Positions 7 to 28,509 of a stretch of DNA of 29,488 nucleotides are shown one piece after another. The notes under the pieces are model-generated. The model made no database searches. It had not been told where the DNA came from and saw only the letters and a program-made list of their open reading frames with translations. The stretch comes from a virus (taxonomy: Duplodnaviria; Heunggongvirae; Uroviricota; Caudoviricetes). Location: positions 1-29,488 of IMG/VR virus record IMGVR_UViG_3300028914_000001; one strand, 5' to 3'. Position 1 is the stretch's first letter. The number at the start of each line of letters is the position of its first letter. The position numbers and the translations under genes were made by a program.

Positions 7-185
7 GATGGCAGACCTTGGGTCTGCCATCTTTTTTGCCTCGCCCCGTGGTTTCAACATAGGTTATCACCCTCCGCCAGCGGCTGCCAGTCCCCTGCTG
101 CCTCGTTCCGCTGGTTGCTGGTAAGCAAAAGGTTACAATATTTTTTGCAATAAGCCTTGACAAAACAGTTTTAATTATCTATATT
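7..185 (+). repeat. Junction 1: terminator + site A + promoter
   Basis: Hairpin 7-31; site A 53-72 (core CATAGG); TTGACA 157, TATATT 180. Confidence 0.9.
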
Positions 186-214
186 CTATATGAACCTAAC
201 AACGAGGTATTGAA

Positions 215-397
215 ATGGGTTTAGATGAATTTGTGGCTGAGTGCCAAAAGGTTGATAGCCGTATCAAAGTGCAAAAGGTTTATGGGCATAAGGCGGTTGT
301 CATCGGTAATGATTATGTTGTGGTTGAGGGATATAACTTCCCGTATCAAGCCCACCTTATTACTACCCTGATGAAAGATAGCGGTTCGTTTGAATAG
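215..397 (+). CDS. Hypothetical protein, 60 aa
   Basis: AACGAGG SD before ATG, directly after promoter. Confidence 0.8.
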   Translation: MGLDEFVAECQKVDSRIKVQKVYGHKAVVIGNDYVVVEGYNFPYQAHLITTLMKDSGSFE

Positions 398-405
398 GGG
401 GTTAT

Positions 406-600
406 ATGGTGGATTGTGTTGTGCCAAAGGTGGTTACGGAGCCGTCATTTGAACGGAGCAAGGACTTTGACCAAAAGGCTTGGGATAAGAAGCACCGCTG
501 TAAGAAGTGCGGTAAGAAGACCTTTTACAAAGAGATAGCGGGCGGGTGGATTTGCTCAACTTGCTATCCTAAGCTGAAAGAGGAAGAGAAGACTCTTTAA
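406..600 (+). CDS. Small Zn-ribbon protein, 64 aa
   Basis: CKKC...CSTC; GGGGG SD; followed by terminator. Confidence 0.8.
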   Translation: MVDCVVPKVVTEPSFERSKDFDQKAWDKKHRCKKCGKKTFYKEIAGGWICSTCYPKLKEEEKTL

Positions 601-622
601 AAATTTGTTGTGCCGACTCCTA

Positions 623-795
623 GCCCCCTCGCAAGAGGGGGTTTCTCTTTGCCATGCCCGGAGTTCCAACATAGGTTATCACCCTATGCGAGCGGGAACA
701 GGGGCGGCTGCTACCACCCTATATTAAAAGGTGCGACGAGGGTTGCAAAAATTTTTATTGCTCCCCTTGACAAACTGAATTTAATTAACTATATT
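623..795 (+). repeat. Junction 2: terminator + site A + promoter
   Basis: GCAA-loop hairpin 623-642; site A 665-684 (CATAGG); TTGACA 767, TATATT 790. Confidence 0.9.
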
Positions 796-826
796 ATATA
801 TAGAAACAACAAAAGGAGTTGAAAAT

Positions 827-1189
827 ATGGCACAGAAACTTATCACAGCAGAAGTCAAGAAGTTCTTGAAGAAGCACCCTAGCGGTTCGCAAGACGGGCT
901 GAACGGCGAAGCAAAGGTCGCCTGCCGTCTGTTCTGCCCTTTCAGTCATGCATTGACATGGTATATCCTTGAAGGCTACGAGGATAACGAAAACATTGCT
1001 TACGGCTATGTTGTGAACAACTTGCACCCCGAGGATAGCGAATATGGCGATATCGACCTTGCTGAACTTGCCAAGCTGAGACAGTTCGGTTGCCCTGCCG
1101 TTGAACGAGACATTAGCATTAGCGTGGGAATGCCATTGGCCAAAGCCCTAGAAGTATCAAAAGACCCTAAACCTAGTTGGTGGGATTAA
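827..1189 (+). CDS. DUF2958-like protein
   Basis: LF.P....TWY..E.....AYG......E.G.I.L.EL......G.PAVERD pattern recognised from memory; AGGAG SD. Confidence 0.75.
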   Translation: MAQKLITAEVKKFLKKHPSGSQDGLNGEAKVACRLFCPFSHALTWYILEGYEDNENIAYGYVVNNLHPEDSEYGDIDLAELAKLRQFGCPAVERDISISVGMPLAKALEVSKDPKPSWWD

Positions 1190-1218
1190 AGAATTTGCTT
1201 AACTCCCTGATGAAGACC

Positions 1219-1389
1219 GCCCCCTTTACGGGGGCATTTTTTATTTCTTTCCGCTGGGCTTTCAACATGGGTTATCACCCTTGGATGTCTGGAGCTTCGA
1301 GGGCTGTCGCTCCGATGTCCGTGCTGTGGAAACAATGTTAAGATTTTTTATATTATTTTATTGACAAACTAGATTTAATTATGTATATT
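1219..1389 (+). repeat. Junction 3: terminator + site A + promoter
   Basis: Hairpin 1219-1235; site A 1261-1280 (CATGGG); TTGACA 1361, TATATT 1384. Confidence 0.9.
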
Positions 1390-1421
1390 GTTTATACAAC
1401 CCAAACAACGGAGTATAAAAA

Positions 1422-1793
1422 ATGCGTGTAAAGAAAATGGACAACGAAACACGGAAAAAATTTGAAACTTTCCGCAACCATATCAAAGAGGTTCTTTGCT
1501 ACCTCGTCTATGAATTTGGCTATGGCAATCGCCTTAAACAGAAGAGCGATATCATTCCAAAGGTAACGGAAAGCGTGTTCCGACCCAACAACTCTCACAA
1601 GACTGGAACGAAGTGGTCTCACGGTGACGCTACCTTGACTTACGGCTTGGACAACCACGGTGAGGAATACGCCACGCTTACAACAAGAGGGGTGGCGATA
1701 GATATACCTGTCCTCCCGGCTCGCAAGATGGCTAAGGCGATAGATGTATTCCTCGTGAAGTTCAATGAAGATAAGAGCAAGAAAAAGAACTAA
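1422..1793 (+). CDS. Hypothetical protein, 123 aa
   Basis: AACAACGGAG leader before ATG. Confidence 0.8.
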   Translation: MRVKKMDNETRKKFETFRNHIKEVLCYLVYEFGYGNRLKQKSDIIPKVTESVFRPNNSHKTGTKWSHGDATLTYGLDNHGEEYATLTTRGVAIDIPVLPARKMAKAIDVFLVKFNEDKSKKKN

Positions 1794-1796
1794 GTT

Positions 1797-2033
1797 ATGA
1801 TAGCATTAATAATCTTTTTTATCGCACTAGGCGTATGCGGTCTTGCCGCTATCATAGGTGCAATAATCATTTCAATAAAGAAGATGGCATATCAATGCAA
1901 GCACCAATGGAAAACGGTAAAGGACTTTACTATAACAAGAGGTGACCGAGTAGTAGGTCACCAATACATTCAGCAATGCGTTCACTGCGGAGCTGTTCAA
2001 GATGTAAAGTGCTACATTAACGACAATGATTAA
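1797..2033 (+). CDS. Membrane-anchored small Cys/His protein, 78 aa
   Basis: Hydrophobic N-terminus (aa 1-26); CKH...CVHC. Confidence 0.75.
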   Translation: MIALIIFFIALGVCGLAAIIGAIIISIKKMAYQCKHQWKTVKDFTITRGDRVVGHQYIQQCVHCGAVQDVKCYINDND

Positions 2034-2038
2034 CCATA

Positions 2039-2194
2039 GCCCCCTCGCAAGAGGGGGATTTCATTTGTGTTCCCCGGAGGTTCAACATAGGTTATCACCC
2101 TCAACCGTGGAACCCGGCGTCCCTGACCTCCTCCGCCCTCGTTCAAAAAAGTTGTTCATAACCCCTTGACAAACTAGATTTAATTATGTATATT
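2039..2194 (+). repeat. Junction 4: terminator + site A + promoter
   Basis: GCAA-loop hairpin 2039-2057; site A 2081-2100 (CATAGG); TTGACA 2166, TATATT 2189. Confidence 0.9.
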
Positions 2195-2225
2195 GTATAA
2201 GGAAACAACGAAAGGAGTTAAACCT

Positions 2226-2840
2226 ATGGCACATATCACTAAATACTCTCGCCAAAGAGAATCCTACATTAAGTCTCACTACTCTATGGAACACGCAAAG
2301 GCAATGAAAACGCCCCGTTCCTATGAGCAAAAGAACGGCAATGAACTGATTGAAACGGACTTTACCGACAAAGAACTTGCTGGGATTGACAAAATGGTTC
2401 GTGACACTTTGGGCAAAGATTACGAAGTAGTCTATTACAAGCAAGAAAGTCTGTGGCATGATGACTGCACAAAGAGCTATATTGTCTATGCAGTTATCCA
2501 TAAGGAATTGTTCAAGCGGTCTAAGGCTAAATACAATAAGAAGTTGCAAACATTCTGCTCTACTGATTCTAACCGCATTGTTATTCGCAATACTGCAAGC
2601 GGTTGCCGTTATTCTACCTGTGGATATATTTGGTTCACTTTTGAAAAGCATAGCAATAGCGACACTATTATGTATTCTGCTGATGATGTTGAAACATTCG
2701 GTCGCAAAGCAAAGTATAAAAAGCGTTGGGACACAATGGGTCATTTCTATTTGGTCTCTGAAATCTTGTTTAAGAATTATTTGAGTAGTGCAAAGGGCGG
2801 CATTGAAAAAGTCAAGGCGTTCTTTGAAAAATTCCTTTAA
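2226..2840 (+). CDS. Hypothetical basic protein, 204 aa
   Basis: Start moved to ATG 2226 after AAGGAG; the ORF-track start 2193 lies in the -10 box. Confidence 0.8.
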   Translation: MAHITKYSRQRESYIKSHYSMEHAKAMKTPRSYEQKNGNELIETDFTDKELAGIDKMVRDTLGKDYEVVYYKQESLWHDDCTKSYIVYAVIHKELFKRSKAKYNKKLQTFCSTDSNRIVIRNTASGCRYSTCGYIWFTFEKHSNSDTIMYSADDVETFGRKAKYKKRWDTMGHFYLVSEILFKNYLSSAKGGIEKVKAFFEKFL

Positions 2841-2901
2841 AAGAGTGGGGAGGTTTTCACTGAAACCCATCAAACCTTAAACACCCTAACCAAACTACTC
2901 T

Positions 2902-3077
2902 CACCGCCGAATGGCGGTGTTCTTTTTTTATTTCCCCCCGATATCCAACATAGGTTATCACCCTTTACCCTTCGCACGCCGTCCCATTCGGGTTGGGTTA
3001 ATCCATAGTCTGTAACCGAAGCTTTACACAAATACTGATTAAGCCCTATTGACAAAATGGATTTAATTATGTATATT
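2902..3077 (+). repeat. Junction 5: terminator + site A + site B + promoter
   Basis: Hairpin 2902-2919; site A 2944-2963 (CATAGG); site B 3011-3028; TTGACA 3049, TATATT 3072. Confidence 0.9.
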
Positions 3078-3104
3078 ATGAATACATAAACGAGAGGTAG
3101 CACA

Positions 3105-3419
3105 ATGGCTAAAATCAAAGTTAGTAGCAAGTCGCTTGCAAAGTTCAAATCAAAGAACATCGTCAAGATAGCAACGGATTTCGTCAAGGGGTCTATTGAA
3201 ATGGGCAAGGTCAGGAACGCAATTCAGGCTACCCTAGACCAGCACCCTGAACTCACAGACTACAACGAGGTCATAGCCGCAAGGATATTGGCACAGAGTC
3301 TGCTCTACACTATCTTCGGTAACAAGAACCTCATCTTGTGGAAAGATAGCGTAAGCCGTTCTGAAATGGCTAAGATGCGTAAGTGTTCTGTTGATATGTT
3401 CTACAACTATCGCAAGTAA
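3105..3419 (+). CDS. Hypothetical basic protein, 104 aa
   Basis: GAGG SD after promoter. Confidence 0.8.
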   Translation: MAKIKVSSKSLAKFKSKNIVKIATDFVKGSIEMGKVRNAIQATLDQHPELTDYNEVIAARILAQSLLYTIFGNKNLILWKDSVSRSEMAKMRKCSVDMFYNYRK

Positions 3420-3478
3420 AAGCGTGGTAATGCGGTTTAACAACAATGCCTTAAACACCCAAACTCTACCGCATTACA

Positions 3479-3648
3479 GCCCTCGTCGAACGACGAGGGT
3501 TTTTCTTTTTTCGTCGCCATGGGTTTCAACATAGGTTATCACCCTTCTGCTGTGGAGTCGAGCGTCGGTCATCGAGTGGTTTGTAACCAAATGTTTACAC
3601 AAATAGTGGTTAAAACCTATTGACAAATTGAATTTAATTAGCTATATT
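3479..3648 (+). repeat. Junction 6: terminator + site A + site B + promoter
   Basis: Hairpin 3479-3500; site A 3525-3544 (CATAGG); site B 3582-3599; TTGACA 3620, TATATT 3643. Confidence 0.9.
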
Positions 3649-3674
3649 ATAAATACATTATAGGAGTAATTGTT

Positions 3675-3935
3675 ATGGCAGAAATCTTTTTAGAAGTCAA
3701 GAAAGACATGCAGTTTACTGCAAATGACTTTGCGAACTACCTTTGCAAAGTGATTATGAACCACCTTGAAAAAAAGGTCTGCGGTTTGACCGGGAATTAT
3801 GAATGGGAAGATGGTTCTAACGCCCAGTTGGTCTTCAAGCTCAACATTAGCCGTGAAGAGGCTGATGAGCTGGTAAGCACTATCAACGATGAGTGCGAAG
3901 ACTACGGAACATGGTTCCTCGCTGATGAACAGTAG
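3675..3935 (+). CDS. Acidic hypothetical protein, 86 aa
   Basis: AGGAG SD; single-gene module. Confidence 0.8.
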   Translation: MAEIFLEVKKDMQFTANDFANYLCKVIMNHLEKKVCGLTGNYEWEDGSNAQLVFKLNISREEADELVSTINDECEDYGTWFLADEQ

Positions 3936-3952
3936 GGCATGACCCTAGTTGC

Positions 3953-4107
3953 AAGCCCCCTCGCAAGAGGGGGCTTTACTCGTGTTGCAAGCCAGTTTCA
4001 ACATAGGTTATCACCCTCTGCCGCTGGAACCCGGCGACGCACGAGCTTTCCAGAAATAATTTTTTGCTGAATTAGGGCTTGACAAATTGAATTTAATTAG
4101 GTATATT
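3953..4107 (+). repeat. Junction 7: terminator + site A + promoter
   Basis: GCAA-loop hairpin 3953-3976; site A 3997-4016 (CATAGG); TTGACA 4079, TATATT 4102. Confidence 0.9.
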
Positions 4108-4143
4108 TTGAATACAGCAAAAAAACATAAGGGAGAAGCAAAT

Positions 4144-4431
4144 ATGATAGATGCAACACAAGAAACTTACGACAAGCTTTCCGATGAAATCAAGGGAAAG
4201 ATTAAGCAAGTCGAAGAGCAGGGTTTAACCCGTGTTGAAGTTGAAGTCCAATTCAAGGGTGAAGATTCTACTGAAACACAAACCATTGCTATAATGGGCG
4301 ATTATGACCCTGATAATCCACCCAAAGACGATGACAACATTTTTTATTACTGTGATAGTATTCGAGACTTGATTGGGTTGTTCGACCCAGAGGGTTGCGG
4401 CGACTTTTACATAACGGATATTTACCTATAA
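4144..4431 (+). CDS. Acidic hypothetical protein, 95 aa
   Basis: Start moved to ATG 4144 after GGGAG; the ORF-track start lies inside the promoter. Confidence 0.8.
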   Translation: MIDATQETYDKLSDEIKGKIKQVEEQGLTRVEVEVQFKGEDSTETQTIAIMGDYDPDNPPKDDDNIFYYCDSIRDLIGLFDPEGCGDFYITDIYL

Positions 4432-4447
4432 GCCATACAACTTCGTA

Positions 4448-4615
4448 GCCCCCTCGCATGAGGGGGTTTCTCTTTGCCATGCCCGGAGTTCCAACATAGG
4501 TTATCACCCCATGCCCGTGGCGGCGTCGAGACCTCCGGGTGTTTACCGTGTTTACAAAACTTTACATAAAATTTTTGTTGTAACCCTTGACTAACTAGAT
4601 TTAATTAAGTATATT
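4448..4615 (+). repeat. Junction 8: terminator + site A + promoter
   Basis: Hairpin 4448-4467; site A 4490-4509 (CATAGG); TTGACT 4587, TATATT 4610. Confidence 0.9.
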
Positions 4616-4641
4616 TATAGCATAAAACGGAGGTTAAACCA

Positions 4642-5175
4642 ATGGCACAGAAAAAAGAAAAAGTCACTGAATGGGTCGCACTTGAAACCAACAGAGATGT
4701 ATCCTACGAAGAATACAAAGAGAACTGCGAAGCCAATGAAAGAGAACCGCAAGAAGAGGGTTCGGACGACTATTGGAACTATGTAAATGATACCCTGCAA
4801 CTTGAACACGACGACTTTAAGGGCAACATGAAGCATAGCAAGTTGTTCCCAATGGTGGCTTGGGGCTATGATGACCTTTGGAATGGGCAACGCTATGGCG
4901 GCAAGGTCTTGAAGAGCGTGAATGACCTGCTCGGTCTGTTCAGTTCGTGCGACAACATCAAGATATGGCAAGACAAAGATGGTATGCATATCAATGGCTA
5001 CCACCATGACGGAACCAACCATGCTGATATAAAAATTATCAATAAGCGTGGGCAAGAATGGCTTGCAAAACACGAAGAAGAATATCAATATGACCCCTCG
5101 GGCTTGGCTAAACAGTTGTTCCAACCCTGCTTTTCTCGCTCGTTCCCAATGGGGCATAAAAACTACCTTTTCTAA
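4642..5175 (+). CDS. Phage hypothetical protein with HHDGTN motif, 177 aa
   Basis: GGAGG SD; LWNG...HHDGTN pattern recalled from uncharacterised phage proteins. Confidence 0.8.
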   Translation: MAQKKEKVTEWVALETNRDVSYEEYKENCEANEREPQEEGSDDYWNYVNDTLQLEHDDFKGNMKHSKLFPMVAWGYDDLWNGQRYGGKVLKSVNDLLGLFSSCDNIKIWQDKDGMHINGYHHDGTNHADIKIINKRGQEWLAKHEEEYQYDPSGLAKQLFQPCFSRSFPMGHKNYLF

Positions 5176-5187
5176 CCCCTCGTTGTT

Positions 5188-5346
5188 ATCCCCCATCCGC
5201 AAGGGTGGGGGATTTATTTTTTGTTTTCCCCCGATATCCAACATAGGTTATCACCCTTCTGCCGCTGGAACCAGGGGAAGTCGGGGTTCACCAGGATTTA
5301 ATTTTTTATATTTTTTCTTGACAAACTGAATTTAATTAAGTATATT
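5188..5346 (+). repeat. Junction 9: terminator + site A + promoter
   Basis: GCAA-loop hairpin 5188-5213; site A 5237-5256 (CATAGG); TTGACA 5318, TATATT 5341. Confidence 0.9.
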
Positions 5347-5378
5347 TATTATAGCAACATAAAACAACGAGGTAATAA

Positions 5379-5777
5379 ATGTTTGCTAGTAACAAGAAAG
5401 TAGATATCAAGCTCCCAAGCGGTGTAGATTTTACCGTCTGTGCCGAGGATTGGGAAGATGCTTCTGCGGCAATTTGCTGTGAGCTTCTGACTGACGAAGA
5501 TATAGAGGATATTGCCAATAAGCTGAAAGTCCAAGCTGATGCTAACCCTTACTGGGATAAAGCTGATGACTTTGATACCAATAACGAGCTGAATGGCGAC
5601 CAAATGGACGAGCTTTGGCGTGATTACGAGAACATCACCATAGCTCATAAGGTGTTCTACTTCGAGGATATGACCGAAGCCGAATACGCTAAGTATAACG
5701 CCTTGTGCGAAGCCAATGACGAAACCGGGGTTAAAACCCTTTGTGAACAGGTTTACAACAGAATTAAGGGGAAATAA
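5379..5777 (+). CDS. Acidic hypothetical protein, 132 aa
   Basis: AACAACGAGG leader. Confidence 0.8.
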   Translation: MFASNKKVDIKLPSGVDFTVCAEDWEDASAAICCELLTDEDIEDIANKLKVQADANPYWDKADDFDTNNELNGDQMDELWRDYENITIAHKVFYFEDMTEAEYAKYNALCEANDETGVKTLCEQVYNRIKGK

Positions 5778-5778
5778 A

Positions 5779-6006
5779 ATGAAAAGTGGCGAATACTACT
5801 ATTACAAAGTAGATGTAATGTCTAGGTCTCACGGCTATTCCTTTATGGTGCGTTGCAAAGACGAGCTGTCCGATGAAGAGGTAATTAGCCGAGCAAGCAA
5901 GGCAGATTGCTTTGAAGATGAAGCCGACACTGATAACGCTTATGTTGATAGCTACCTTGTAGATAGCGATATTAGGGCGTTCAAGGACTGCACAACTACT
6001 GTGTAG
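5779..6006 (+). CDS. Acidic hypothetical protein, 75 aa
   Basis: ATG 5779 after AAGGGG, coupled to the upstream stop codon. Confidence 0.75.
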   Translation: MKSGEYYYYKVDVMSRSHGYSFMVRCKDELSDEEVISRASKADCFEDEADTDNAYVDSYLVDSDIRAFKDCTTTV

Positions 6007-6015
6007 GGGTTTACT

Positions 6016-6354
6016 ATGGCAGAAATAGAGTTGAAAGACACTGAAACCGAATTTAGCTATGGTGATTCGCAAGACTTGGGCAAAGGTAAGCATAGGCAAC
6101 CTATTATATATAGAGGCAAAGAAATAGGCTATTTGGTTTCTGTTGATAAAAACTGGCTTGCTCCCGTTGAAGAAACTTATATCTTGCCCGATGTAGAATA
6201 CGGAATGAAACCAAGTGAGGGTGGTGGCTTACTTGACGGCAAAAAGGGCTGGATAGAGTTTAAAGTATTCAAAACCTATGATGAAGCATTTAGATATGCT
6301 TCCCAAAACTTTGACGAGCTTGCATATTTGTTTGAATATGGAGATTATGATTAA
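6016..6354 (+). CDS. Hypothetical protein, 112 aa
   Basis: TAGGGG SD overlapping the upstream stop. Confidence 0.8.
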   Translation: MAEIELKDTETEFSYGDSQDLGKGKHRQPIIYRGKEIGYLVSVDKNWLAPVEETYILPDVEYGMKPSEGGGLLDGKKGWIEFKVFKTYDEAFRYASQNFDELAYLFEYGDYD

Positions 6355-6378
6355 ACCACAACATAAGGGGGAATAAAA

Positions 6379-6591
6379 ATGGACAAGTGCATTAGCGAAT
6401 TGGAAGTATGCGTTGCCGTTGAGAACGGCAGGGCTGACTATCCGTGGTCGTTCCTACATACTGACGGCTCGGTTGCAAACGATAACGAGGAAGTTCCTTT
6501 TATGCCGAGGGAAACTGCTGAAAAGGTTGTTGAAAAATACAATGAAAGCTGTGGTGATAACCTCGCTAAAATCTTTTACGAAATTCCTTAA
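6379..6591 (+). CDS. Acidic hypothetical protein, 70 aa
   Basis: AAGGGGG SD; ends before terminator. Confidence 0.75.
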   Translation: MDKCISELEVCVAVENGRADYPWSFLHTDGSVANDNEEVPFMPRETAEKVVEKYNESCGDNLAKIFYEIP

Positions 6592-6596
6592 TAACA

Positions 6597-6764
6597 GCCC
6601 CTCGCAAGAGGGGTTTTCATTTGGCTTCCCCTGAGTTTCAACATAGGTTATCACCCCTCAACCTTCTGCCCGCAGGCGGAGGCTGCTCCGCCAGCCTCGC
6701 TAACAAAAGTTTACACAAAAAGTTCTATATACCTATTGCCTAATTAGATTTAATTAGCTATATT
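6597..6764 (+). repeat. Junction 10: terminator + site A + promoter
   Basis: GCAA-loop hairpin 6597-6615; site A 6637-6656 (CATAGG); TTGCCT 6736, TATATT 6759. Confidence 0.9.
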
Positions 6765-6791
6765 TATATCATAACAACAACGAGGTATCTT

Positions 6792-7175
6792 ATGAGCAAA
6801 GAAGTTGAGTTTGTAGAGAAAGCGAAAGCTATCTTGTCTAACGCTTGCAAGGACTCTATTGCAAGAGTCAAAGAGGGAAATACCATTACCATAGATGACC
6901 GCTTCAAGTATGATTATGGCGATTTCCACAAGTGGCGTGCTGGTGATGAATTTAGAGTAGAGCATATCAAAAAGACTCCGTATATGACGGTTCTCTATTG
7001 CGTTGCGACCAAAGCTACACCTGATGAGGGCGGTTCTGCAAGGGGCGAAGTTGGGGCACAAGTCGAGTTCGACGACAAGATGAACCTGTTTAACTACTTG
7101 CGTTGCAAGGGCGACCTTACAGCCGTTCAAAATCTTCGTCAGTTGTGCCGGGATTATCTTAACGGTATTTTGTAG
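6792..7175 (+). CDS. Hypothetical protein, 127 aa
   Basis: AACAACGAGG leader. Confidence 0.8.
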   Translation: MSKEVEFVEKAKAILSNACKDSIARVKEGNTITIDDRFKYDYGDFHKWRAGDEFRVEHIKKTPYMTVLYCVATKATPDEGGSARGEVGAQVEFDDKMNLFNYLRCKGDLTAVQNLRQLCRDYLNGIL

Positions 7176-7183
7176 GGGGATAT

Positions 7184-7423
7184 ATGGAATTGAAAAAAGG
7201 AACTATCCTAGTAGCAAAGAACTATATCAAGTGTTATGTTCCCTCGTATCAGTTTGAGGTGGGAACAGAATTTGTTTATCTGTTTTCGTATCAGGGTTGC
7301 TATATGGTGCAGAGAAGTTGTAATGGAAAAGTCTATGATAGCGGTAATCTGTTGCCTGAACATAGCGGAGAGGCTGGCTGTCTGCTTGCAGTAAAACCCT
7401 GCGATGTGGAGAGAAAGAAATGA
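7184..7423 (+). CDS. Hypothetical protein, 79 aa
   Basis: TAGGGGG SD. Confidence 0.75.
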   Translation: MELKKGTILVAKNYIKCYVPSYQFEVGTEFVYLFSYQGCYMVQRSCNGKVYDSGNLLPEHSGEAGCLLAVKPCDVERKK

Positions 7424-7677
7424 AAATATTTTTTATTTTATTTGTCGCTCTGTTGGTTGCGTGTTCTGAAAACGGAACTTCTGCACCGAACGAAATCTGC
7501 TATGACAAAAAAATCGGTTATGAAGATTTTGGAAACCCGATGTATAAGCCATATAAAGACCAATGGCTTGACGGAGCCTGTGAACAATTTTTTGAAGGAA
7601 CTACTGATTGCATAAAGTATAATTATGACTTTCGGATTACGGTTCGTGATTGTATGGAAAATGTTGAATTTCACTAA
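7420..7677 (+). CDS. Putative lipoprotein, 85 aa
   Basis: MK + hydrophobic stretch + LVAC lipobox-like site; ATGA overlap with upstream stop. Confidence 0.75.
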   Translation: MKIFFILFVALLVACSENGTSAPNEICYDKKIGYEDFGNPMYKPYKDQWLDGACEQFFEGTTDCIKYNYDFRITVRDCMENVEFH

Positions 7678-7689
7678 AAGGAGATAACC

Positions 7690-7860
7690 GCCCCGAAAGG
7701 GGCATTTCTTTTTGGCAGAGCTGGATATCCAACTTGGGTTATCACCCTTTACCCTTCGCACGCCGTCCCATTCAGATTTCCGCCCGGTTTTGACGACAGA
7801 CTTTTTTTCAAAAAAAGTTGAAAAGCGGTTTACATTTTTATTTCTCAAAACGATATATAA
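7690..7860 (+). repeat. Junction 11: terminator + site A, consensus promoter absent
   Basis: GAAA-loop hairpin 7690-7703; site A 7728-7747 (CTTGGG); only a degenerate TTTACA 7829 / GATATA 7852. Confidence 0.85.
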
Positions 7861-7900
7861 GTATAGAGATGAATGTTTAACCCTCAACAAAGGAGTAGAT

Positions 7901-8179
7901 ATGGGTAACATTATCAAGGTGGACTTCAAGGCTATTAAGATTAACAATATCAAAAAGAGTCAGCTTAAACACCTTATGGAGTATCTTCCTGAACTCAAAG
8001 AGAGGCACAAGAAGCTCAAAGAGCTTCACGCACCGAAGTCTATCATTGATGGCGACGTGCGTCTTATCTACGCTTGCACGCACCGTCTTGACCGTCTCAA
8101 AGCGTGGTGGTATCAGCAGATGACTCCCGAAGAGAAGCTCTTGCGTGCCATCTTCTGCCCCGAGACCATTGGCATGTAG
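7901..8179 (+). CDS. Hypothetical basic protein, 92 aa
   Basis: ATG 7901 after AAGGAG; the ORF-track extension from 7712 runs through the junction. Confidence 0.8.
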   Translation: MGNIIKVDFKAIKINNIKKSQLKHLMEYLPELKERHKKLKELHAPKSIIDGDVRLIYACTHRLDRLKAWWYQQMTPEEKLLRAIFCPETIGM

Positions 8180-8186
8180 ATGACCT

Positions 8187-8364
8187 AGCCCCCTTTCGTC
8201 GAGGGGGCTTTAACACGCCACGGCTAGAAATTCAACTTAGGTTATCACCCTTCTGCCGCTGGAGGCGTGCGTCGGTCGAGCGTCAGTCATCGTGTAATGT
8301 AATCGAAAGTTTACACAAAAAGTGGCATATACCTATTGCCTAATTAGATTTAATTAACTATATT
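8187..8364 (+). repeat. Junction 12: terminator + site A + site B + promoter
   Basis: Hairpin 8187-8209; site A 8231-8250 (CTTAGG); site B 8298-8315; TTGCCT 8336, TATATT 8359. Confidence 0.9.
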
Positions 8365-8392
8365 TATATAGTAACCAAACAAGGGGTAACAC

Positions 8393-8740
8393 ATGACTAA
8401 CAAGAAAACCACAAACAAGACCGCAAAAACTCCCACATACACATTGAAAAGAACTGATGTTGATTTCAAGTGGGATAGTTCCGAAGTCCATACCGTAGGA
8501 CGTTACCACAACATTAAGCTGGCTGAAAACGCCAAAGTCACGGACATGATTTCCTGCATTGAAGTGGGCTTCACGCTTACCGAAGAGCTGAAAGAGAAAA
8601 CCATCGCTGTGTTCTGTGGCAAGACAGAGCCGAAAGACAAGTTCATCGTCAATGGCTTTGTGGTCTGCAAAGACGAACTCTACTTGGACGACCCCAACAC
8701 GCTCGCCCCGGCATACTCTTGGACTATTGAAAAGGGTTAA
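8393..8740 (+). CDS. Hypothetical protein, 115 aa
   Basis: AAGGGG SD after promoter. Confidence 0.8.
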   Translation: MTNKKTTNKTAKTPTYTLKRTDVDFKWDSSEVHTVGRYHNIKLAENAKVTDMISCIEVGFTLTEELKEKTIAVFCGKTEPKDKFIVNGFVVCKDELYLDDPNTLAPAYSWTIEKG

Positions 8741-8766
8741 AACAAAAGATAACTTCCATGGTTATC

Positions 8767-8920
8767 GCCCCTCCCCTCGGAGGGGCTTTCTCGTGCTGAT
8801 AACTGGGTTTCAACTTAGGTTATCACCCTGCACTGGGGAACCTCCTGTTCCACCCCGGTGTCCGCCAGTATAAAAAATTTTTAATTGCCTATTGACAAAC
8901 TGAATTTAATTAACTATATT
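8767..8920 (+). repeat. Junction 13: terminator + site A + promoter
   Basis: Hairpin 8767-8786; site A 8809-8828 (CTTAGG); TTGACA 8892, TATATT 8915. Confidence 0.9.
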
Positions 8921-8956
8921 TATAATAGAAACAACAATAAAATAGGAGTAAAGCTT

Positions 8957-9238
8957 ATGGCTCTCAATGTAGATAAACTGAAAGAAAAAATTGAAGACAA
9001 GTATGGCGACCTTGACGATGAAATGGGTTGCTATATTAACCATAATTGGCTCTCTGTCAAAGATGTAGTGGATATGATTGACGACTGCGGCGATGATGCC
9101 GATGCCCTCAAAACCTGCCTTGAAGAGACCTATGGCGACTTGCAAGACGAAACGGGTTGCTCTGTTGGCGACATGAACGAATGGCTCTCTGTCAAGTCCA
9201 TTGTGAACCTCATTGACGATTGCACCGACGAAGACTAG
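8957..9238 (+). CDS. Very acidic protein with internal tandem duplication, 93 aa
   Basis: ATG 8957 after AGGAG; two YGDLxDExGC...WLSVKxxVxxIDDC units. Confidence 0.85.
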   Translation: MALNVDKLKEKIEDKYGDLDDEMGCYINHNWLSVKDVVDMIDDCGDDADALKTCLEETYGDLQDETGCSVGDMNEWLSVKSIVNLIDDCTDED

Positions 9239-9249
9239 GGGGTATAACT

Positions 9250-9543
9250 ATGAGTAACGAACCGAGATTAGAACCTGTTGAGTTCCTTAACAGCCTTAAA
9301 AAGAAAATTCTTACCAAACTTCCCTTTGCCGATTTGGGCGATGTAGAAGTGGTTGTGACAGTGGGCGTAAGCAATATGTGTAGCGGTGATAGCCTTAAAC
9401 TCCGGGTTCCAAAATATCATTGGTCTGATTGCATTGGTTATGACCAACTGACCGAACATTACGCAGAGCATTATGCTGACGCACTTTGCCGGGTATGGGT
9501 ATCCGAGAGTATCCCTGCCGAATATGCGAATTGCCTGAAATAA
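9250..9543 (+). CDS. Hypothetical protein, 97 aa
   Basis: ATG 9250 after TAGGGGG SD. Confidence 0.75.
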   Translation: MSNEPRLEPVEFLNSLKKKILTKLPFADLGDVEVVVTVGVSNMCSGDSLKLRVPKYHWSDCIGYDQLTEHYAEHYADALCRVWVSESIPAEYANCLK

Positions 9544-9550
9544 CAAAACC

Positions 9551-9701
9551 GCCCCTCGCAAGAGGGGTTTTAATTTTTTTTCTTTTTTGATATCAACATG
9601 GGTTATCACCCTGTCCCCGTGAACCTCCTGTCCCACCCCGGTGTCCACAGTGAAAAATTTTTTATTTATCTATTGACAAACTGAATTTAATTAGGTATAT
9701 T
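9551..9701 (+). repeat. Junction 14: terminator + site A + promoter
   Basis: GCAA-loop hairpin 9551-9568; site A 9592-9611 (ATCAA-CATGGG variant); TTGACA 9673, TATATT 9696. Confidence 0.9.
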
Positions 9702-9734
9702 TATAGTATAGAAACATTAAACGGAGAAAGCATT

Positions 9735-10544: not shown

Positions 10545-10554
10545 GCAAACTCCT

Positions 10555-11076: not shown

Positions 11077-11077
11077 T

Positions 11078-18064: not shown

Positions 18065-18098
18065 TATATCATAGAAACAAATCAACGGAGAATTAAAA

Positions 18099-18506: not shown

Positions 18507-18519
18507 AAAGGAGTTCACA

Positions 18520-18864: not shown

Positions 18865-18885
18865 TGGGGGTATAACATTCCCCGG

Positions 18886-19044
18886 ATGCCCTCGAAAGGG
18901 GGCATTTTTATTTTTTCTTTTTTGGGTTTCAACTTAGGTTATCACCCTTTTCCTGGAAACCTCCTGGGGATAATCCAAGTTTACAAAACTTTACATAAAA
19001 AACAACGGCTTACTCTTGACTAAACCAATTTAATTATGTATATT
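18886..19044 (+). repeat. Junction 24: terminator + site A + promoter
   Basis: GAAA-loop hairpin 18886-18905; site A 18928-18947 (CTTAGG); TTGACT 19016, TATATT 19039. Confidence 0.9.
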
Positions 19045-19073
19045 TTAACTAGCTATTAAACGGAGATATTTTT

Positions 19074-19784
19074 ATGGCTAAAAAGTTCAATCCTAATAAA
19101 TACACTTATCACTTCAACCTCGGGCATAACGTAAAGCTCGGCGAAGGCATCGCAACATGGTCTACCCTTAAAGGGTCTGAATTGCTCTACATCCCTGTCC
19201 TTGAAAAAAAGGTGCGTGGCACTTGCAAGGATAGTGAGTATTGCACCAAAGACTGTTATGTAAACAAGAGCTACAACCGCTTTCCAAAGACCGCCCTCTA
19301 CGGTCATGCTAGGAACACAATAGGGCTTCGTCGTTGCCCGTCCAAGGTGTTCGCTGACCTGCATCGCCAGCTTTCAGTCACCAACCGCTTCCGCATTGTA
19401 CGCATCAACCAGAGCGGCGACATTGAAAATATCCAAGAGCTTGAAATGTGGGTAAACCTTGCTTTGCTCCATCCAAATTTCACTTTTTACATCTACACTA
19501 AACAATTTAAGATAGCATCTGAATTTGTTTTGTCGAACGGCTTGCCCAAAAACTTCCATCTGAATTTCTCTATTTGGCATGAACACGGGGTAAACGAATA
19601 TTTCAAGGTCGCATCTAATCCAAATGCTCACGCTTTCGTCTATGATGACGGAGAAACCTATATCCCGGCTAATGACTATTGCAGGGCTTACATCAATGGT
19701 AAACTCAACCATAAGATAACCTGTGAAGTATGTAAGAAGTGTTATAAGCCAAAGACGAAAGTTATCTATTGCAAGTCTCATTAA
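19074..19784 (+). CDS. GP88-like phage protein, 236 aa
   Basis: GTC...C...CY; R....SGD; FY.YTK; N..FS; C-terminal TCxxCxxC. Confidence 0.65.
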   Translation: MAKKFNPNKYTYHFNLGHNVKLGEGIATWSTLKGSELLYIPVLEKKVRGTCKDSEYCTKDCYVNKSYNRFPKTALYGHARNTIGLRRCPSKVFADLHRQLSVTNRFRIVRINQSGDIENIQELEMWVNLALLHPNFTFYIYTKQFKIASEFVLSNGLPKNFHLNFSIWHEHGVNEYFKVASNPNAHAFVYDDGETYIPANDYCRAYINGKLNHKITCEVCKKCYKPKTKVIYCKSH

Positions 19785-19788
19785 ATCC

Positions 19789-19958
19789 GCCCCCGAAAGG
19801 GGGCATTTTTTATTTTTTATTTTTTGATTTTCAACATGGGTTATCACCCTAGCCTCGACTCCAGCTGTCCCACTCGGTTTCCGCCCTCGACTGTAACGAA
19901 ATCTTTACACAAAAAATGATGGAAACCTATTGACAGCCAATATTTAATTAGGTATATT
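19789..19958 (+). repeat. Junction 25: terminator + site A + site B + promoter
   Basis: GAAA-loop hairpin 19789-19804; site A 19830-19849 (CATGGG); site B 19892-19909; TTGACA 19930, TATATT 19953. Confidence 0.9.
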
Positions 19959-19982
19959 TATAGCAAACAACAGGAGACCTAT

Positions 19983-20393
19983 ATGGCAAAGAAAAAGACT
20001 ACATACTATCAGGCTGTTTGCTACACCACCGACCACTGCGATGATGACCTTATTGCACCCTCGTTTTGGAACCCGACGAAAGACCGCAAGGAAGCCGCTA
20101 GTGAAATCATGACTGAAATTGAACAGTCGTTCAGTTACACTACACGTAAAGGTTTCGGCCCTGAAAGCATCACGATTGAGTTCCGTCACAACACCGACGA
20201 TAACATCTCGTGGGAGAGCAAGGTCGTCAAGTGCATGGGGCGTAGCAAGAAGTTCCGCACCATGCTTGAACAGGGGCTTGCTGACGGCTCTATCATCACT
20301 GTCATGGTGACTGTTCCCGAATATGTTAATCTGTCCAATGTTCTCGTCAATGAACGCAAAGATGTTTTCCACATCAACGATTTCACCATCTAA
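19983..20393 (+). CDS. Hypothetical protein, 136 aa
   Basis: ACAGGAG SD. Confidence 0.8.
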   Translation: MAKKKTTYYQAVCYTTDHCDDDLIAPSFWNPTKDRKEAASEIMTEIEQSFSYTTRKGFGPESITIEFRHNTDDNISWESKVVKCMGRSKKFRTMLEQGLADGSIITVMVTVPEYVNLSNVLVNERKDVFHINDFTI

Positions 20394-20896: not shown

Positions 20897-21069
20897 GCCC
20901 CCTCGCAAGAGGGGGCTTCTCTTTATCCCACCTTGGGTTTCAACATGGGTTATCACCCTTTCACTGGAAACCTCCTGTCCCATCCCGGTGTCCATCCCAG
21001 CCTGTAACGAAATCTTTACACAAAAAATGATGGAAACCTATTGACAAAACCATTTTAATTAGGTATATT
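20897..21069 (+). repeat. Junction 26: terminator + site A + site B + promoter
   Basis: GCAA-loop hairpin 20897-20916; site A 20939-20958 (CATGGG); site B 21003-21020; TTGACA 21041, TATATT 21064. Confidence 0.9.
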
Positions 21070-22248: not shown

Positions 22249-22417
22249 GCTCCCTGCATAGGGGGCATTTTTATTTTTTATTTTTAATTTCCAACTTGGG
22301 TTATCACCCCTCAACCTTCTGCCGCCGTCCCCTCGGTTTCCGCCCTCGACTGTAACGAAATCTTTACACAAAAATGTTGGAAACCCTATTGACTAAAACA
22401 ATTTAATTAGGTATATT
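22249..22417 (+). repeat. Junction 27: terminator + site A + site B + promoter
   Basis: Hairpin 22249-22266; site A 22290-22309 (CTTGGG); site B 22351-22368; TTGACT 22389, TATATT 22412. Confidence 0.9.
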
Positions 22418-25433: not shown

Positions 25434-25637
25434 CCCCCGACGGGCATGGTTTGTGGTCATAAGCAAAGCTCCGTTGTTTCTAGCCCGTCGGGGGCTTTTC
25501 TTTTATCCCCATATCAGTTTCAACTTAGGTTATCACCCCTACGCCTTCGACGCCAGTCCCCGTCGTAGCCTGTAACGAAATCTTTACACAAAAAGTGATG
25601 GAAACCCCTTGACTGAAACCATTTAATTAGGTATATT
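25434..25637 (+). repeat. Junction 28: long-loop terminator + site A + site B + promoter
   Basis: 12-bp stem 25434-25445/25483-25494; site A 25519-25538 (CTTAGG); site B 25571-25588; TTGACT 25609, TATATT 25632. Confidence 0.9.
25446..25482 (+). ncRNA. Candidate 3'UTR antisense RNA (loop complementary to module leader, SD and AUG)
   Basis: Loop reverse complement = TAGAAACAACGGAG-CTTTGCTT-ATGACCACAAACCAT; the first 14 nt equal 21075-21088 exactly. Confidence 0.45.
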
Positions 25638-26140: not shown

Positions 26141-26437
26141 ATGTCTATGTTTGTCATCATCGAACACTCGACCGAAACCCCTATCCAAAAAGCAGGGCTT
26201 AACTATCCGTTCAAAACCTATGACGGAACCGTGGAAGCCCTTATCCGCACCCTCAAAGACAACAATGAACTCTATTGCGATGGAACCAATGGGGGTTACG
26301 AAATCCATGTTCCCGACAGCGATGAAAACCTCGAACACGAAACCGAAATCCGTGATGCGATGAAAAGCAGCCACTCACTCGTTGTAGACCATGGCGACTA
26401 CGATGTGCGTTATGACATCGTTGAACTCCTGCCATAA
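26141..26437 (+). CDS. Acidic hypothetical protein, 98 aa
   Basis: GGAGG SD inside the upstream gene end. Confidence 0.8.
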   Translation: MSMFVIIEHSTETPIQKAGLNYPFKTYDGTVEALIRTLKDNNELYCDGTNGGYEIHVPDSDENLEHETEIRDAMKSSHSLVVDHGDYDVRYDIVELLP

Positions 26438-26465
26438 AAAATTTTTAATTTTCCCGGAGGCATAA

Positions 26466-26801
26466 ATGAAGCTCAAACTCTATCTCGGTGTCTGCCCTAA
26501 CCGAATTGATGTTCTTCTCGACAAGAAGAAAGCCGACAAGGACAGGTACCTGCGTATCGAAGAAAAGACCATCGACATCCCCGATGCTCTCCTCACGAAA
26601 TCCGCCAAGCCGAAGAAAAGCGGAAAGGTAACTACCATCTGCTACGGCAAGCGTGATACATGGAACAGTGCCAAGGATGCTATCGACTATTTCAACGATG
26701 CCGCTAACAACTCCGATGGTTGCGAAAGGGAAAGATACCTTACCATCGTCAGCAAACTGCTTGACGGCGAAACCAAGGATGTAACAGACAGCTTCGGCTA
26801 G
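26466..26801 (+). CDS. Hypothetical protein, 111 aa
   Basis: GGAGG SD. Confidence 0.8.
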   Translation: MKLKLYLGVCPNRIDVLLDKKKADKDRYLRIEEKTIDIPDALLTKSAKPKKSGKVTTICYGKRDTWNSAKDAIDYFNDAANNSDGCERERYLTIVSKLLDGETKDVTDSFG

Positions 26802-26808
26802 AAATCCC

Positions 26809-26977
26809 ACCCCTCGAAAGAGGGGTTTTATTTTTTTATTTTTTGAGTTTCAACTTAGGTTATCACCCTCGGCTCGACTGCAGCTGTCCCACTCGGTTTC
26901 CGCCCTCGACTGTAACGAAATATTTACACAAAAAATGATGGGAACCCCTTGACTGAAACAATTTAATTAGGTATATT
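26809..26977 (+). repeat. Junction 29: terminator + site A + site B + promoter
   Basis: GAAA-loop hairpin 26809-26826; site A 26849-26868 (CTTAGG); site B 26911-26928; TTGACT 26949, TATATT 26972. Confidence 0.9.
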
Positions 26978-27005
26978 TATAACATAGAAACAACAGGAGA
27001 AACCT

Positions 27006-27767
27006 ATGGCAAAAATCATTTGCAAAGAATTTCCGAAGCCTATCCATAAGTGCATCCACAATCCCCATGTCGATGTCATCAAGACACGCAAGGATGGCAA
27101 GGACACCTACATCTACGAAGTAAGAGCAGATGGTGTTCCCACCTTTGTTATCAACCCGGATGAAACCTTACCCGCAGGCAATATCCCGAACCTCGAAGAC
27201 ACTTGGTACGGCGGTCAATGGCCCGGTAAGGATTGCAACGGGGGCGACTACGACCTGAACCTGTATGACCTTAGCGTGTACGGCGACGGCTGTGGCGTAG
27301 GGGCAAGCATCTACTCCTGCGTCCAGCAAGGCGACTACCCGACCACAAACTTTAATGACTGCGTAAAGGCTACCGTCAAATGCTGGTTCCAAGATGAAAA
27401 GGGCAAGCGAACCGAGTTCAATTACAATATCCCCGACAGCTATCTCGAAAAGTTCGGTGAATGGGATGGCAAGCCAATTCAACTCGTCAAGCGCCCGACC
27501 GATGAAGTATTAAAAGGCGCCAAAGAAATCGTTAAAAAGCTCAAAAAATTTTTGAAGAAAAACAAGCTTGAAATCCACTACGACATGGCAAGCGACAATG
27601 TTTACCTGCTCCCAAAGAAAGGATGGGATGATGCAACACGGGATGATGTCATCAAGGCGATGAAAGCATCCGGCAAAATCCTCAACCCTAGAACATGCGC
27701 TACAAAATGGGGATGGGTTCGTGGTTCTGAACTTGATGATAACTGGTTCTGCAAAGGAGGCAAGTAA
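27006..27767 (+). CDS. Hypothetical protein, 253 aa
   Basis: TAGAAACAACAGGAG leader. Confidence 0.85.
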   Translation: MAKIICKEFPKPIHKCIHNPHVDVIKTRKDGKDTYIYEVRADGVPTFVINPDETLPAGNIPNLEDTWYGGQWPGKDCNGGDYDLNLYDLSVYGDGCGVGASIYSCVQQGDYPTTNFNDCVKATVKCWFQDEKGKRTEFNYNIPDSYLEKFGEWDGKPIQLVKRPTDEVLKGAKEIVKKLKKFLKKNKLEIHYDMASDNVYLLPKKGWDDATRDDVIKAMKASGKILNPRTCATKWGWVRGSELDDNWFCKGGK

Positions 27768-28075
27768 TGGCTAAGAAAAAGAATACTCTCATGGGTAGGA
27801 TGCCGTCAAAGGAAGTGCTTGCCGAAGGCCGTCAAATCGTGTCCGAACTTATGGACTACCTCGGCAAAAACAAGTTGTACCTCATGTTTGACCCCGACGA
27901 CTATAAGCTTCGCCTCGGACCCGAGGGCCTGACCCATGTCGAAGACGGGGTTCAACCCAAGGGTAAAATCCCCTATACCAAAGAGGAAGATGAGGTTTGG
28001 GACGATAACTATTCCCTCGATATTGAGTGGAGCGAGTTCGACCCGGATAACTTCGACGATGATGAGGAGGACTAA
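27767..28075 (+). CDS. Acidic hypothetical protein, 102 aa
   Basis: TAATG stop/start overlap; AGGAGG SD. Confidence 0.8.
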   Translation: MAKKKNTLMGRMPSKEVLAEGRQIVSELMDYLGKNKLYLMFDPDDYKLRLGPEGLTHVEDGVQPKGKIPYTKEEDEVWDDNYSLDIEWSEFDPDNFDDDEED

Positions 28076-28078
28076 CAA

Positions 28079-28345
28079 ATGACCAATGAAAAGAAAAACG
28101 AATTTTCCAAAGTTCTCGAAGACAACGACCTTAATTATTGTTTCGGCTGGAATCTACAAGACGAATTTGAAGTCGAAGTCCACGAGGGCGACTGGAAGCA
28201 TGACCACATCCGTCTTAACTTGATTATGGAAAAGAATGGATATGAACTGGTTAGAGAAACCCATATCGGCCCGCCCACAGATGGCGACTGGTATAGCGCT
28301 ATCCATGTCTTCCGCAAAGCCGAACCCGAAACCCCTGCCGCCTAA
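28079..28345 (+). CDS. Hypothetical protein, 88 aa
   Basis: GAGGAGG SD in the upstream gene end. Confidence 0.8.
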   Translation: MTNEKKNEFSKVLEDNDLNYCFGWNLQDEFEVEVHEGDWKHDHIRLNLIMEKNGYELVRETHIGPPTDGDWYSAIHVFRKAEPETPAA

Positions 28346-28349
28346 TCAT

Positions 28350-28509
28350 ACCCCTCGAAAGAGGGGTTTTCATTTATCTCATCCCCAGTTTCAACTTGGG
28401 TTATCACCCCTTGACTGGAAACCTCCTGTCCCCATCATGGATTGTAAACCATTTTTTACACAAAAAATTGACTAAACCCATTGACGGCCAAGTTTTAATT
28501 AGGTATATT
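28350..28509 (+). repeat. Junction 30: terminator + site A + site B + promoter
   Basis: GAAA-loop hairpin 28350-28367; site A 28390-28409 (CTTGGG); site B 28443-28460; TTGACG 28481, TATATT 28504. Confidence 0.9.

Follow-up and report, generated by a model that had tools for sequence, protein, structure and literature searches.

An invariant, co-oriented site at a near-constant distance behind the terminators of a tandem cassette array in a bovine gut or rumen megaphage

The cassette array and site A

This study concerns a repeated intergenic element, site A, in the first 29.5 kb (29,488 nucleotides (nt), referred to here as the window) of a 422,150-bp phage genome recorded in IMG/VR as IMGVR_UViG_3300028914_000001 and sampled from bovine gut or rumen. 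Because the ends of the record overlap by 110 bp, the assembly is taken to be circular, and the phage is assigned to the myovirus type because it carries tail sheath and baseplate genes. The window is organised as small-gene cassettes in tandem, all on one strand, and the junctions between them share one layout. Each opens with a GC-rich hairpin and its T-tract, separated from site A by a pyrimidine-rich spacer. About 45 nt of GC-rich sequence follow site A, then come an A/T-rich element of the TTTACACAAAAA type and a TTGACA-N17-TATATT promoter whose spacer holds a conserved ATTTAATTA, and finally a Shine-Dalgarno sequence with the start codon. Site A is phased on both sides, upstream to the terminator and downstream, where such an element is present, to a promoter without a -35 box.

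Site A is an invariant DNA site of about 24 bases with the consensus GATTTY-CAAC-WTRG-GTTATCACCC. The pattern CAACWTRGGTTATCACCC occurs 30 times in the window, always on the + strand, against a chance expectation of 0.02. Genome-wide, 43 unique copies were found, all intergenic and on the + strand with none in reverse, and together they make up a single 41-kb array that runs from 414.5 kb through 0 to 33 kb; there is none outside it. The copies are co-oriented with the genes and always lie upstream of them. Sixteen positions are invariant among these 43 copies and 128 distinct junctions of four phages, the flanks of which have diverged, and when the 128 junctions are aligned on site A the conservation reaches position -6. 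The sole dyad that can be read from the sequence is imperfect (GGTnAT/nACC), and when site A and the sequence downstream of it were folded together, no shared structure that involved the site emerged. Single sites in L016, a phage of 48 kb, and in various bacterial genomes were rejected as chance matches, as they have neither terminator nor promoter context. Megablast of window positions 1-20000 against the GenBank phage collection returned no match, and no Rfam family was found in the window or its flanks.

The homologue comparison covered this phage and its relatives G002, G003 and G004, with 136 sites in all; G001 (277 kb) is a more distant relative. The gap was counted from the G/C-ended terminator stem to the CAAC of site A, so that 25 nt measured in this way equals 22 nt to the TTY. 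For junctions 11 and 18 the stem calls were taken from an independent terminator scan.

Several features of the promoters and of the phage may be added here. The ATTTAATTA element is conserved within the 17-nt spacer of every TTGACA promoter in the window (e.g. 157-185), and roughly one junction in three has the A/T-rich TTTACACAAAAA element, some 26 nt upstream of its -35 box; these may be an operator or a UP-type element. Two matches to sigma-70 region 2 occur at genome positions 138890-139036 (in an open reading frame (ORF) of 273 amino acids (aa)) and 289245-289427 (249-aa ORF), and the phage probably redirects the host polymerase via its own sigma factors. Relatives of the array have been binned in metagenome-assembled genomes (MAGs) of Bacteroidota, namely L068, L072, L077 and L082 (sheep-reticulum MAG labelled Bacteroidaceae) and also L079 and L081 (gut MAG contig labelled Alistipes). 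The TTGACA/TATATT promoters and strong GGAG ribosome-binding sites of the phage are atypical for Bacteroidota, and this binning is probably an unreliable guide to the host.

Spacing between terminator and site A

At 29 of the 30 window junctions the hairpin and T-tract are those of an intrinsic (Rho-independent) terminator, and the gaps from stem to CAAC at these junctions are 23 nt (1 junction), 24 nt (4), 25 nt (15), 26 nt (5) and 27 nt (4), with a mode of 25 nt. The first-pass annotation had given a gap of 20-25 nt for all 30 junctions. Counted to the TTY, the spacing is in fact 20-24 nt with a mode of 22, tighter than had been stated, but it holds for 29 junctions, junction 17 having no hairpin. 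The range of 59-90 nt that the same annotation gave for the distance between site A and the -35 box in the window was recovered when measured from the end of the site, and the weak T-tracts noticed at junctions 4, 7, 12 and 19 contain 6, 5, 3 and 6 T, respectively, in the first 9 nt past the stem. The junctions of the window, and the one promoter element without a -35 box within it, are as follows.

Junction 1: 7-73, + strand; stem 7-31, gap 23 nt, site A core 55-72
Junction 2: 624-685, + strand; stem 624-641, gap 25 nt, site A core 667-684
Junction 3: 1219-1281, + strand; stem 1219-1235, gap 27 nt, site A core 1263-1280
Junction 4: 2040-2101, + strand; stem 2040-2057, gap 25 nt, site A core 2083-2100
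Junction 5: 2902-2964, + strand; stem 2902-2919, gap 26 nt, site A core 2946-2963
Junction 6: 3480-3545, + strand; stem 3480-3499, gap 27 nt, site A core 3527-3544
Junction 7: 3955-4017, + strand; stem 3955-3974, gap 24 nt, site A core 3999-4016; weak T-tract
Junction 8: 4449-4510, + strand; stem 4449-4466, gap 25 nt, site A core 4492-4509
Junction 9: 5189-5257, + strand; stem 5189-5212, gap 26 nt, site A core 5239-5256
Junction 10: 6598-6657, + strand; stem 6598-6613, gap 25 nt, site A core 6639-6656
Junction 11: 7690-7748, + strand; stem 7690-7703, gap 26 nt, site A core 7730-7747; followed by a promoter of non-TTGACA type
Junction 12: 8188-8251, + strand; stem 8188-8208, gap 24 nt, site A core 8233-8250; weak T-tract
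Junction 13: 8767-8829, + strand; stem 8767-8786, gap 24 nt, site A core 8811-8828
Junction 14: 9552-9612, + strand; stem 9552-9567, gap 26 nt, site A core 9594-9611
Junction 15: 10556-10615, + strand; stem 10556-10571, gap 25 nt, site A core 10597-10614
Junction 16: 11214-11272, + strand; stem 11214-11228, gap 25 nt, site A core 11254-11271
Junction 17: 12334-12358, + strand; T-rich 25-nt spacer, no hairpin, site A core 12340-12357
Junction 18: 13436-13497, + strand; stem 13436-13453, gap 25 nt, site A core 13479-13496
Junction 19: 14107-14172, + strand; stem 14107-14128, gap 25 nt, site A core 14154-14171
Junction 20: 15042-15100, + strand; stem 15042-15056, gap 25 nt, site A core 15082-15099
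Junction 21: 15975-16032, + strand; stem 15975-15988, gap 25 nt, site A core 16014-16031
Junction 22: 16809-16866, + strand; stem 16809-16822, gap 25 nt, site A core 16848-16865
Junction 23: 17900-17962, + strand; stem 17900-17917, gap 26 nt, site A core 17944-17961
Junction 24: 18887-18948, + strand; stem 18887-18904, gap 25 nt, site A core 18930-18947
Junction 25: 19789-19850, + strand; stem 19789-19804, gap 27 nt, site A core 19832-19849
Junction 26: 20897-20959, + strand; stem 20897-20916, gap 24 nt, site A core 20941-20958
Junction 27: 22249-22310, + strand; stem 22249-22266, gap 25 nt, site A core 22292-22309
Junction 28: 25483-25539, + strand; stem 25483-25495, gap 25 nt, site A core 25521-25538
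Junction 29: 26810-26869, + strand; stem 26810-26825, gap 25 nt, site A core 26851-26868
Junction 30: 28351-28410, + strand; stem 28351-28366, gap 25 nt, site A core 28392-28409
CCACCCTATATT element (-10 type, no -35 box): 714-725, + strand; 29 nt after the site A of junction 2 and upstream of the TTGACA promoter 767-795

At junction 17 the hairpin is likewise absent from the orthologous junctions of G002 and G003, and the T-rich 25-nt spacer and the site are retained (window 12300-12358).

That site A is phased to the terminator had been proposed for the window, and the spacing proved to be constrained in homologues as well. A proximal hairpin precedes 123 of the 136 sites in the four phages, and 112 of these 123 gaps are 24-27 nt long (mean 25.3, standard deviation 1.1, as computed over 118 junctions); the distance from the site to the -35 box is 50-116 nt, with a standard deviation of 11.9. 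The 24-27 nt gap also occurs in 25 of 28 cases in sheep-reticulum contigs. In the alignment of the 128 junctions, the terminator is visible, sharply phased, in the G residues of positions -30 to -27, the T residues of -25 to -23 and the near absence of G between -25 and -18. When 31 orthologous junction pairs, paired by homology of the upstream gene, were compared, the mean difference in the gap was 1.06 nt versus 10.6 nt for the distance from site to -35 box (Mann-Whitney p = 5e-8, for pairs that are not fully independent). The spacers between stem and site are nearly all different (101 distinct sequences out of 108), and several orthologous pairs have unrelated hairpins with the gap kept, for instance GGCACCCAACGAGGTGCC and GGGAGCCGTAAGGCTCCC, at 25 and 24 nt. 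These results indicate that selection acts on the distance from hairpin to site and not on the downstream length, since the gap is constant between orthologues, is made up of distinct sequences and is kept even when the hairpin has been replaced. Helical phasing of the distance from site to -35 box is weak (R = 0.19, p about 0.02) and was not relied on.

Site A also accompanies the terminators in its occurrence. An independent scan gave 53 terminator-like sites versus 18 expected. Within the array, 32 of the 36 strictly called terminators have a site A, and two or three of the four without it are false calls inside genes. By comparison, the four internal TTGACA promoters that follow a stop codon with no hairpin are also without site A, and 13 of 45 sites (variant sites counted) have no TTGACA-type promoter. 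Of the 37 promoter motifs in the array, 32 are no more than 200 nt away from a junction with the site. Since the terminators carry the site, the hairpin-less internal promoters do not and almost a third of the sites are without TTGACA, site A goes with the terminator and not with the TTGACA promoter; this association, together with the orthologous gaps, agrees with the earlier assignment.

Possible functions of site A

Just past the window lies an origin-like array of GTTATCAACA and TTATCAACA boxes, in which six direct GTTTCAAC(A) boxes with a period of 11-12 bp are followed by inverted copies. Site A can be written as GTTTCAACA-TRG-GTTATCACC, that is, as two iteron-type boxes 12 bp apart; it has in common with the iterons the TTYCAAC and TTATCA boxes and the 11-12 bp period, and 15 identical nt (GTTTCAACATGGGTT) are common to site A and the first iteron pair. 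G002 and G003 retain the TTYCAAC box in their equivalent arrays, and no iteron array was seen in the part of G001 examined. At the other end, TGTTGATA and GTTTCA boxes occur at the left edge of the cassette array. From these likenesses we infer that the protein that reads the iterons would also read site A. The left edge (genome 414000-414420, L032 9000-9420) has, immediately ahead of the first site, CCTGTTCTGAACC repeats in tandem and a GTTTCATTTTGAAAC palindrome in addition to the TGTTGATA boxes; this edge may be a second box cluster or a genome-end signal.

The explanation that we favour, though tentatively and at less than even odds, is that site A is a polar boundary (docking) site, comparable to a stoperator, for a putative phage DNA-binding protein that would insulate the early cassettes. 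The site would be a two-part, asymmetric docking site for a sequence-specific protein that is probably phage-encoded and probably the same as the one on the iterons, GTTTCAAC and TTATCAAC, that flank the cassette array. G001 agrees with a two-part site: its variant, CAACCTGTTCCATCACCC, present in 12 forward and no reverse copies, retains CAAC and ATCACCC within the same 18-nt frame and differs between them, as would be expected of a protein site with two contacts; ATCACCC is 30-35 nt from the stem in G001 versus 36 nt in this phage. The upstream edge of the site would meet the front of RNA polymerase positioned on the terminator U-tract, and an occupied site would hold or stop any polymerase that had not been released, thereby insulating each early cassette from its neighbour, as a stoperator-like fail-safe added behind an intrinsic terminator. 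At CCACCsTATAT promoters without a -35 box, the bound protein would lie at about -66 to -48 and could aid the start of the polymerase. The geometry is consistent with such an arrangement: in the alignment of the 128 junctions the stem reaches to -26 and the first base of the site falls between -6 and -3, which, with the 14-nt stand-off given by the first-pass annotation and the footprint of RNA polymerase, places the RNA 3' end 6-9 nt past the stem, on the U-tract. Of the roadblock-assisted termination that this annotation had put forward, the phasing is observed and the stall arithmetic fits; the bound protein and its effect on termination are hypothetical.

We rate this explanation no higher because its binder is putative, the terminators look strong enough unaided and the geometric fit was judged after the fact. 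Several points weigh against it: most array terminators are canonical, with 6-8 T in 9 nt and GNRA loops; site A is missing from all 97 terminator-like hairpins outside the array, so that terminators there work without one; at least five sites (414499, 416746, a variant at about 416852, 416965 and 417058) have no terminator, and neither has the hairpin-less junction 17; a block between a terminator and the next strong promoter alters expression only if read-through matters; a Pfam search of eight early or origin-flanking proteins found only an AAA ATPase and no DNA-binding domain; and a roadblock gives no reason for the second phasing, that of the CCACCsTATAT element 28-31 nt after the site. 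Of the five terminator-less sites, 414499 is the first of the array and the other four fall within a tandem cluster at genome positions 416631-417075 (L032 11630-12075, outside the window). This cluster has five copies of site A, 93-117 nt apart, one of them a variant with TTATCGCCC, and is absent from G002 and G004; the stretches between its copies are GC-rich, without ORF or terminators, and two of them share TTCGAAAGGGGGG...GTGCCAC.

The second phasing is the basis of a rather unlikely alternative, in which site A is an upstream promoter element, namely an activator site near -57 of an ancestral CGGA..CCACCsTATAT promoter without a -35 box, and the terminator spacing reflects close packing; the -10 element would then have been lost in most junctions and a TTGACA promoter added further downstream. 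The sequence CCACCCTATATT occurs upstream of genes only five times in the genome, always 28-29 nt after site A (window 714-725; genome 414545, 417105, 418410 and 419605), junctions 414499, 417058 and 419558 have no other promoter before the gene, and remnants such as CTGGAGTCG and CGGA are found in the variable regions. G001 speaks in the same direction. Most G001 cassettes have CGGATAGGCCACCGTATAT 29-31 nt after the site and no TTGACA promoter (7-8 of 13 junctions, with unrelated intervening sequence). The TATAT in G001 is very probably a true -10 element, because it lies 6-7 nt before the shared leader ATCAACAAGGAG, exactly as the -10 of the TTGACA promoters of G001 does. Judged from these arrangements, CCACCCTATATT appears to represent a second class of promoter, one that depends on an activator and has no -35 box, and this class dominates in G001. 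However, about 120 junctions without such a -10 element still have an invariant site; the first 22 nt after the site never contain TAnnnT (136 junctions), and it is rare at the offset where it would be expected; the spacing at one G003 junction is 20 nt instead of 28-29 nt; and close packing would not account for a gap held to about 1 nt in both directions beside a hypervariable stretch of 45 nt that has not been compacted. In this phage, the CCACCCTATATT copies are followed by leaders with hairpins that differ in sequence and retain their pairing.

The hypervariable stretch after site A (e.g. 73-117, about 59% GC) leads to a further and still less probable explanation, in which site A serves as a recombination anchor for the shuffling of cassettes, either by homology, as in promoter-early stem-loop (PeSL) cassettes, or site-specifically, and the spacing is inherited because terminator, spacer and site move as one block. 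Identity within the 45 nt is only about 0.3 between orthologous junctions, and families of this sequence are common to non-orthologous ones. In BLAST comparisons with the related phages, the homology blocks that carry genes frequently begin in the promoter region, 49-100 nt past one site, and frequently stop precisely at the 3' boundary of the following site (+17 to +19); the order of the cassettes differs in places. The shared 45-nt families and these block ends point to exchange between junctions, for which PeSL cassettes provide a precedent (PMC2839356, PMC4122927); the ends at +17 are, however, partly an artefact of extension through a perfect 18-mer. Against the anchor itself, the phage has no match to a tyrosine recombinase (PF00589) or a Y1 HUH enzyme (PF01797), and the site is no dyad and does not have inverted arms around a 6-8 bp spacer as in a tyrosine-recombinase core site. 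Inheritance as a block explains neither the gap kept after replacement of the hairpin nor the missing length changes in slippage-prone, T-rich spacers, and a 22-nt anchor without any other function should decay.

RNA-library contigs from bovine gut were also compared with window positions 1-20000, in four runs. Among the contigs listed, those of run X7 cover gene bodies only and stop short of the junctions (e.g. 203-615, 17006-17891 and 18087-18869). Run X20 includes contigs that cross whole junctions; because these are assembled contigs with possible DNA carry-over, and the listing covers 32 of 218 pieces, the runs were not used as evidence on transcript starts, ends or read-through. Some X20 contigs join different cassettes (646, 3503, 3977 and 12324 to 7724, 17942 and 16011), with the break between terminator and site A or inside the promoter and with short matching sides (20-52 nt); their probable source is related strains whose cassettes are ordered differently.

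The boxes that site A shares with the iterons, including the 15 identical nt, would also suit a polar replication barrier, acting where forks leaving the origin-like array run head-on into early units, or a titration site for an initiator, but we consider either role improbable. The cassette array is bordered by box clusters on either side, all of its sites share one orientation, toward the origin-like array, and the cumulative GC skew has a local minimum near 34 kb. Neither barrier nor titration, however, explains phasing to the terminator within about 1 nt, the assignment of the origin is itself putative, and the global skew minimum is at 211 kb.

It is very improbable, too, that an unrecognised phage RNA polymerase uses site A as a promoter of the T7 type, which would be contiguous, directional and about 23 bp long. 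The invariant block of 22-24 bp is indeed contiguous, co-oriented and always upstream of genes, three genes have no TTGACA promoter after the site, and Pfam and PHROGs leave nearly all of the eleven largest ORFs without annotation (the exceptions being tail sheath and baseplate). But no T7-like polymerase, RpoB-type match or DxDGD motif was found in ORFs of at least 150 aa; PF00940 gave no match either, a weak negative as the search control was also without a match. Moreover, the host polymerase appears to be used, because the phage has sigma-factor genes and promoters of the consensus TTGACA-N17-TATATT; no initially transcribed sequence is conserved; and the shared leader favours TATAT as the true -10 element.

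The other alternative of the first-pass annotation, that hairpin and site A form a single-stranded DNA recognition unit of an HUH-type enzyme, recalls the ends of IS200/IS605 elements and REP/RAYT units in its fixed distance from hairpin to conserved sequence, but its probability is next to nil: neither the sequence nor the loop nor the stem length (5-11 bp) of the hairpins is constant, orthologous junctions can have different hairpins in place of one another, their GNRA and UUCG-type loops and T-tracts are those of RNA terminators, some sites have no hairpin at all, and a search for a Y1 HUH gene (PF01797) gave no match.

Returning to the boundary-site interpretation, its consequences would be several: if the bound protein parks RNA polymerase on the U-tract, the array would be a natural case, in a bacterial virus, of roadblock-assisted intrinsic termination, repeated over more than 170 independent junctions in several megaphages, in which hairpin and spacer are varied and the distance is kept; it would then offer a first handle on how early transcription is organised in giant rumen and gut phages; and the iteron link points to one protein possibly connecting replication and transcription boundaries. 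Even if the roadblock fails, site A is a well-defined bait for a regulator.

Comparison with known systems

Terminators completed by a roadblock protein are known from eukaryotes, in which TTF-I at the Sal box, Reb1/Nsi1 and the Fob1 fork barrier act in ribosomal DNA and at RNA polymerase II units. As proposed for site A, a protein is bound at a set distance downstream of a T-rich release element in each unit of a tandem array, its action is one-directional and it may also be a barrier to replication forks. The differences are that these proteins belong to another domain of life and act on other polymerases. It is conceivable, although we think it distinctly unlikely, that the site A protein is the phage counterpart of TTF-I, Reb1 and Fob1, that is, one polar protein shared with the origin iterons and placed behind every terminator of the array, which would finish termination by roadblock and also stop forks, or polymerases that slide on after termination, at the boundaries of the units. 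If so, replication control would be coupled to the insulation of transcription units.

A bacterial parallel is DnaA, which blocks transcription when bound to a DnaA box (asnC); an origin-type box outside the origin can stop RNA polymerase in an orientation-dependent manner. Site A resembles this and iteron initiators in sharing boxes with origin-like iterons. Unlike a DnaA box, however, the second box of site A (TTATCACCC), read from the sequence, matches TTATNCACA at only 6 of 9 positions, for which it was rejected as a DnaA box, and a DnaA search of the phage gave no match above the cut-off, only weak AAA+ matches.

The stoperators of Cluster A mycobacteriophages, bound by the L5 gp71-type repressor, are asymmetric, lie in short intergenic spaces and stop elongation in an orientation-dependent manner (PMC9283540). 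Site A is likewise asymmetric, present in many copies in short intergenic spaces and strictly oriented with respect to transcription (43 forward, 0 reverse). Stoperators halt elongating host RNA polymerase, and one protein reads two sub-sites in them; the same action and the same mode of reading are proposed for site A. On the other hand, stoperators are 13-14 bp long, genome-wide, not tied to intrinsic terminators and also used as an operator inside the early promoter, whereas site A is about 24 bp long, confined to the 41-kb early array about 25 nt behind terminators, and never overlaps a TTGACA promoter, lying 50-116 nt upstream of the -35 box. Unlike stoperator phages, this phage has no lysogeny genes at the Pfam level.

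The PeSL cassettes of T4-type phages consist of a stem-loop and a promoter only (PMC2839356, PMC4122927). The cassettes described here are of the same kind in being repeated modules of a terminator and an early sigma-70 promoter between small genes of unknown function, which are gained, lost and reordered between relatives. They differ from PeSL cassettes by a third, invariant element, site A, phased to the terminator, and by the hypervariable GC-rich spacer of about 45 nt. The arrangement is thus one of PeSL-type cassettes combined with a stoperator-like site.

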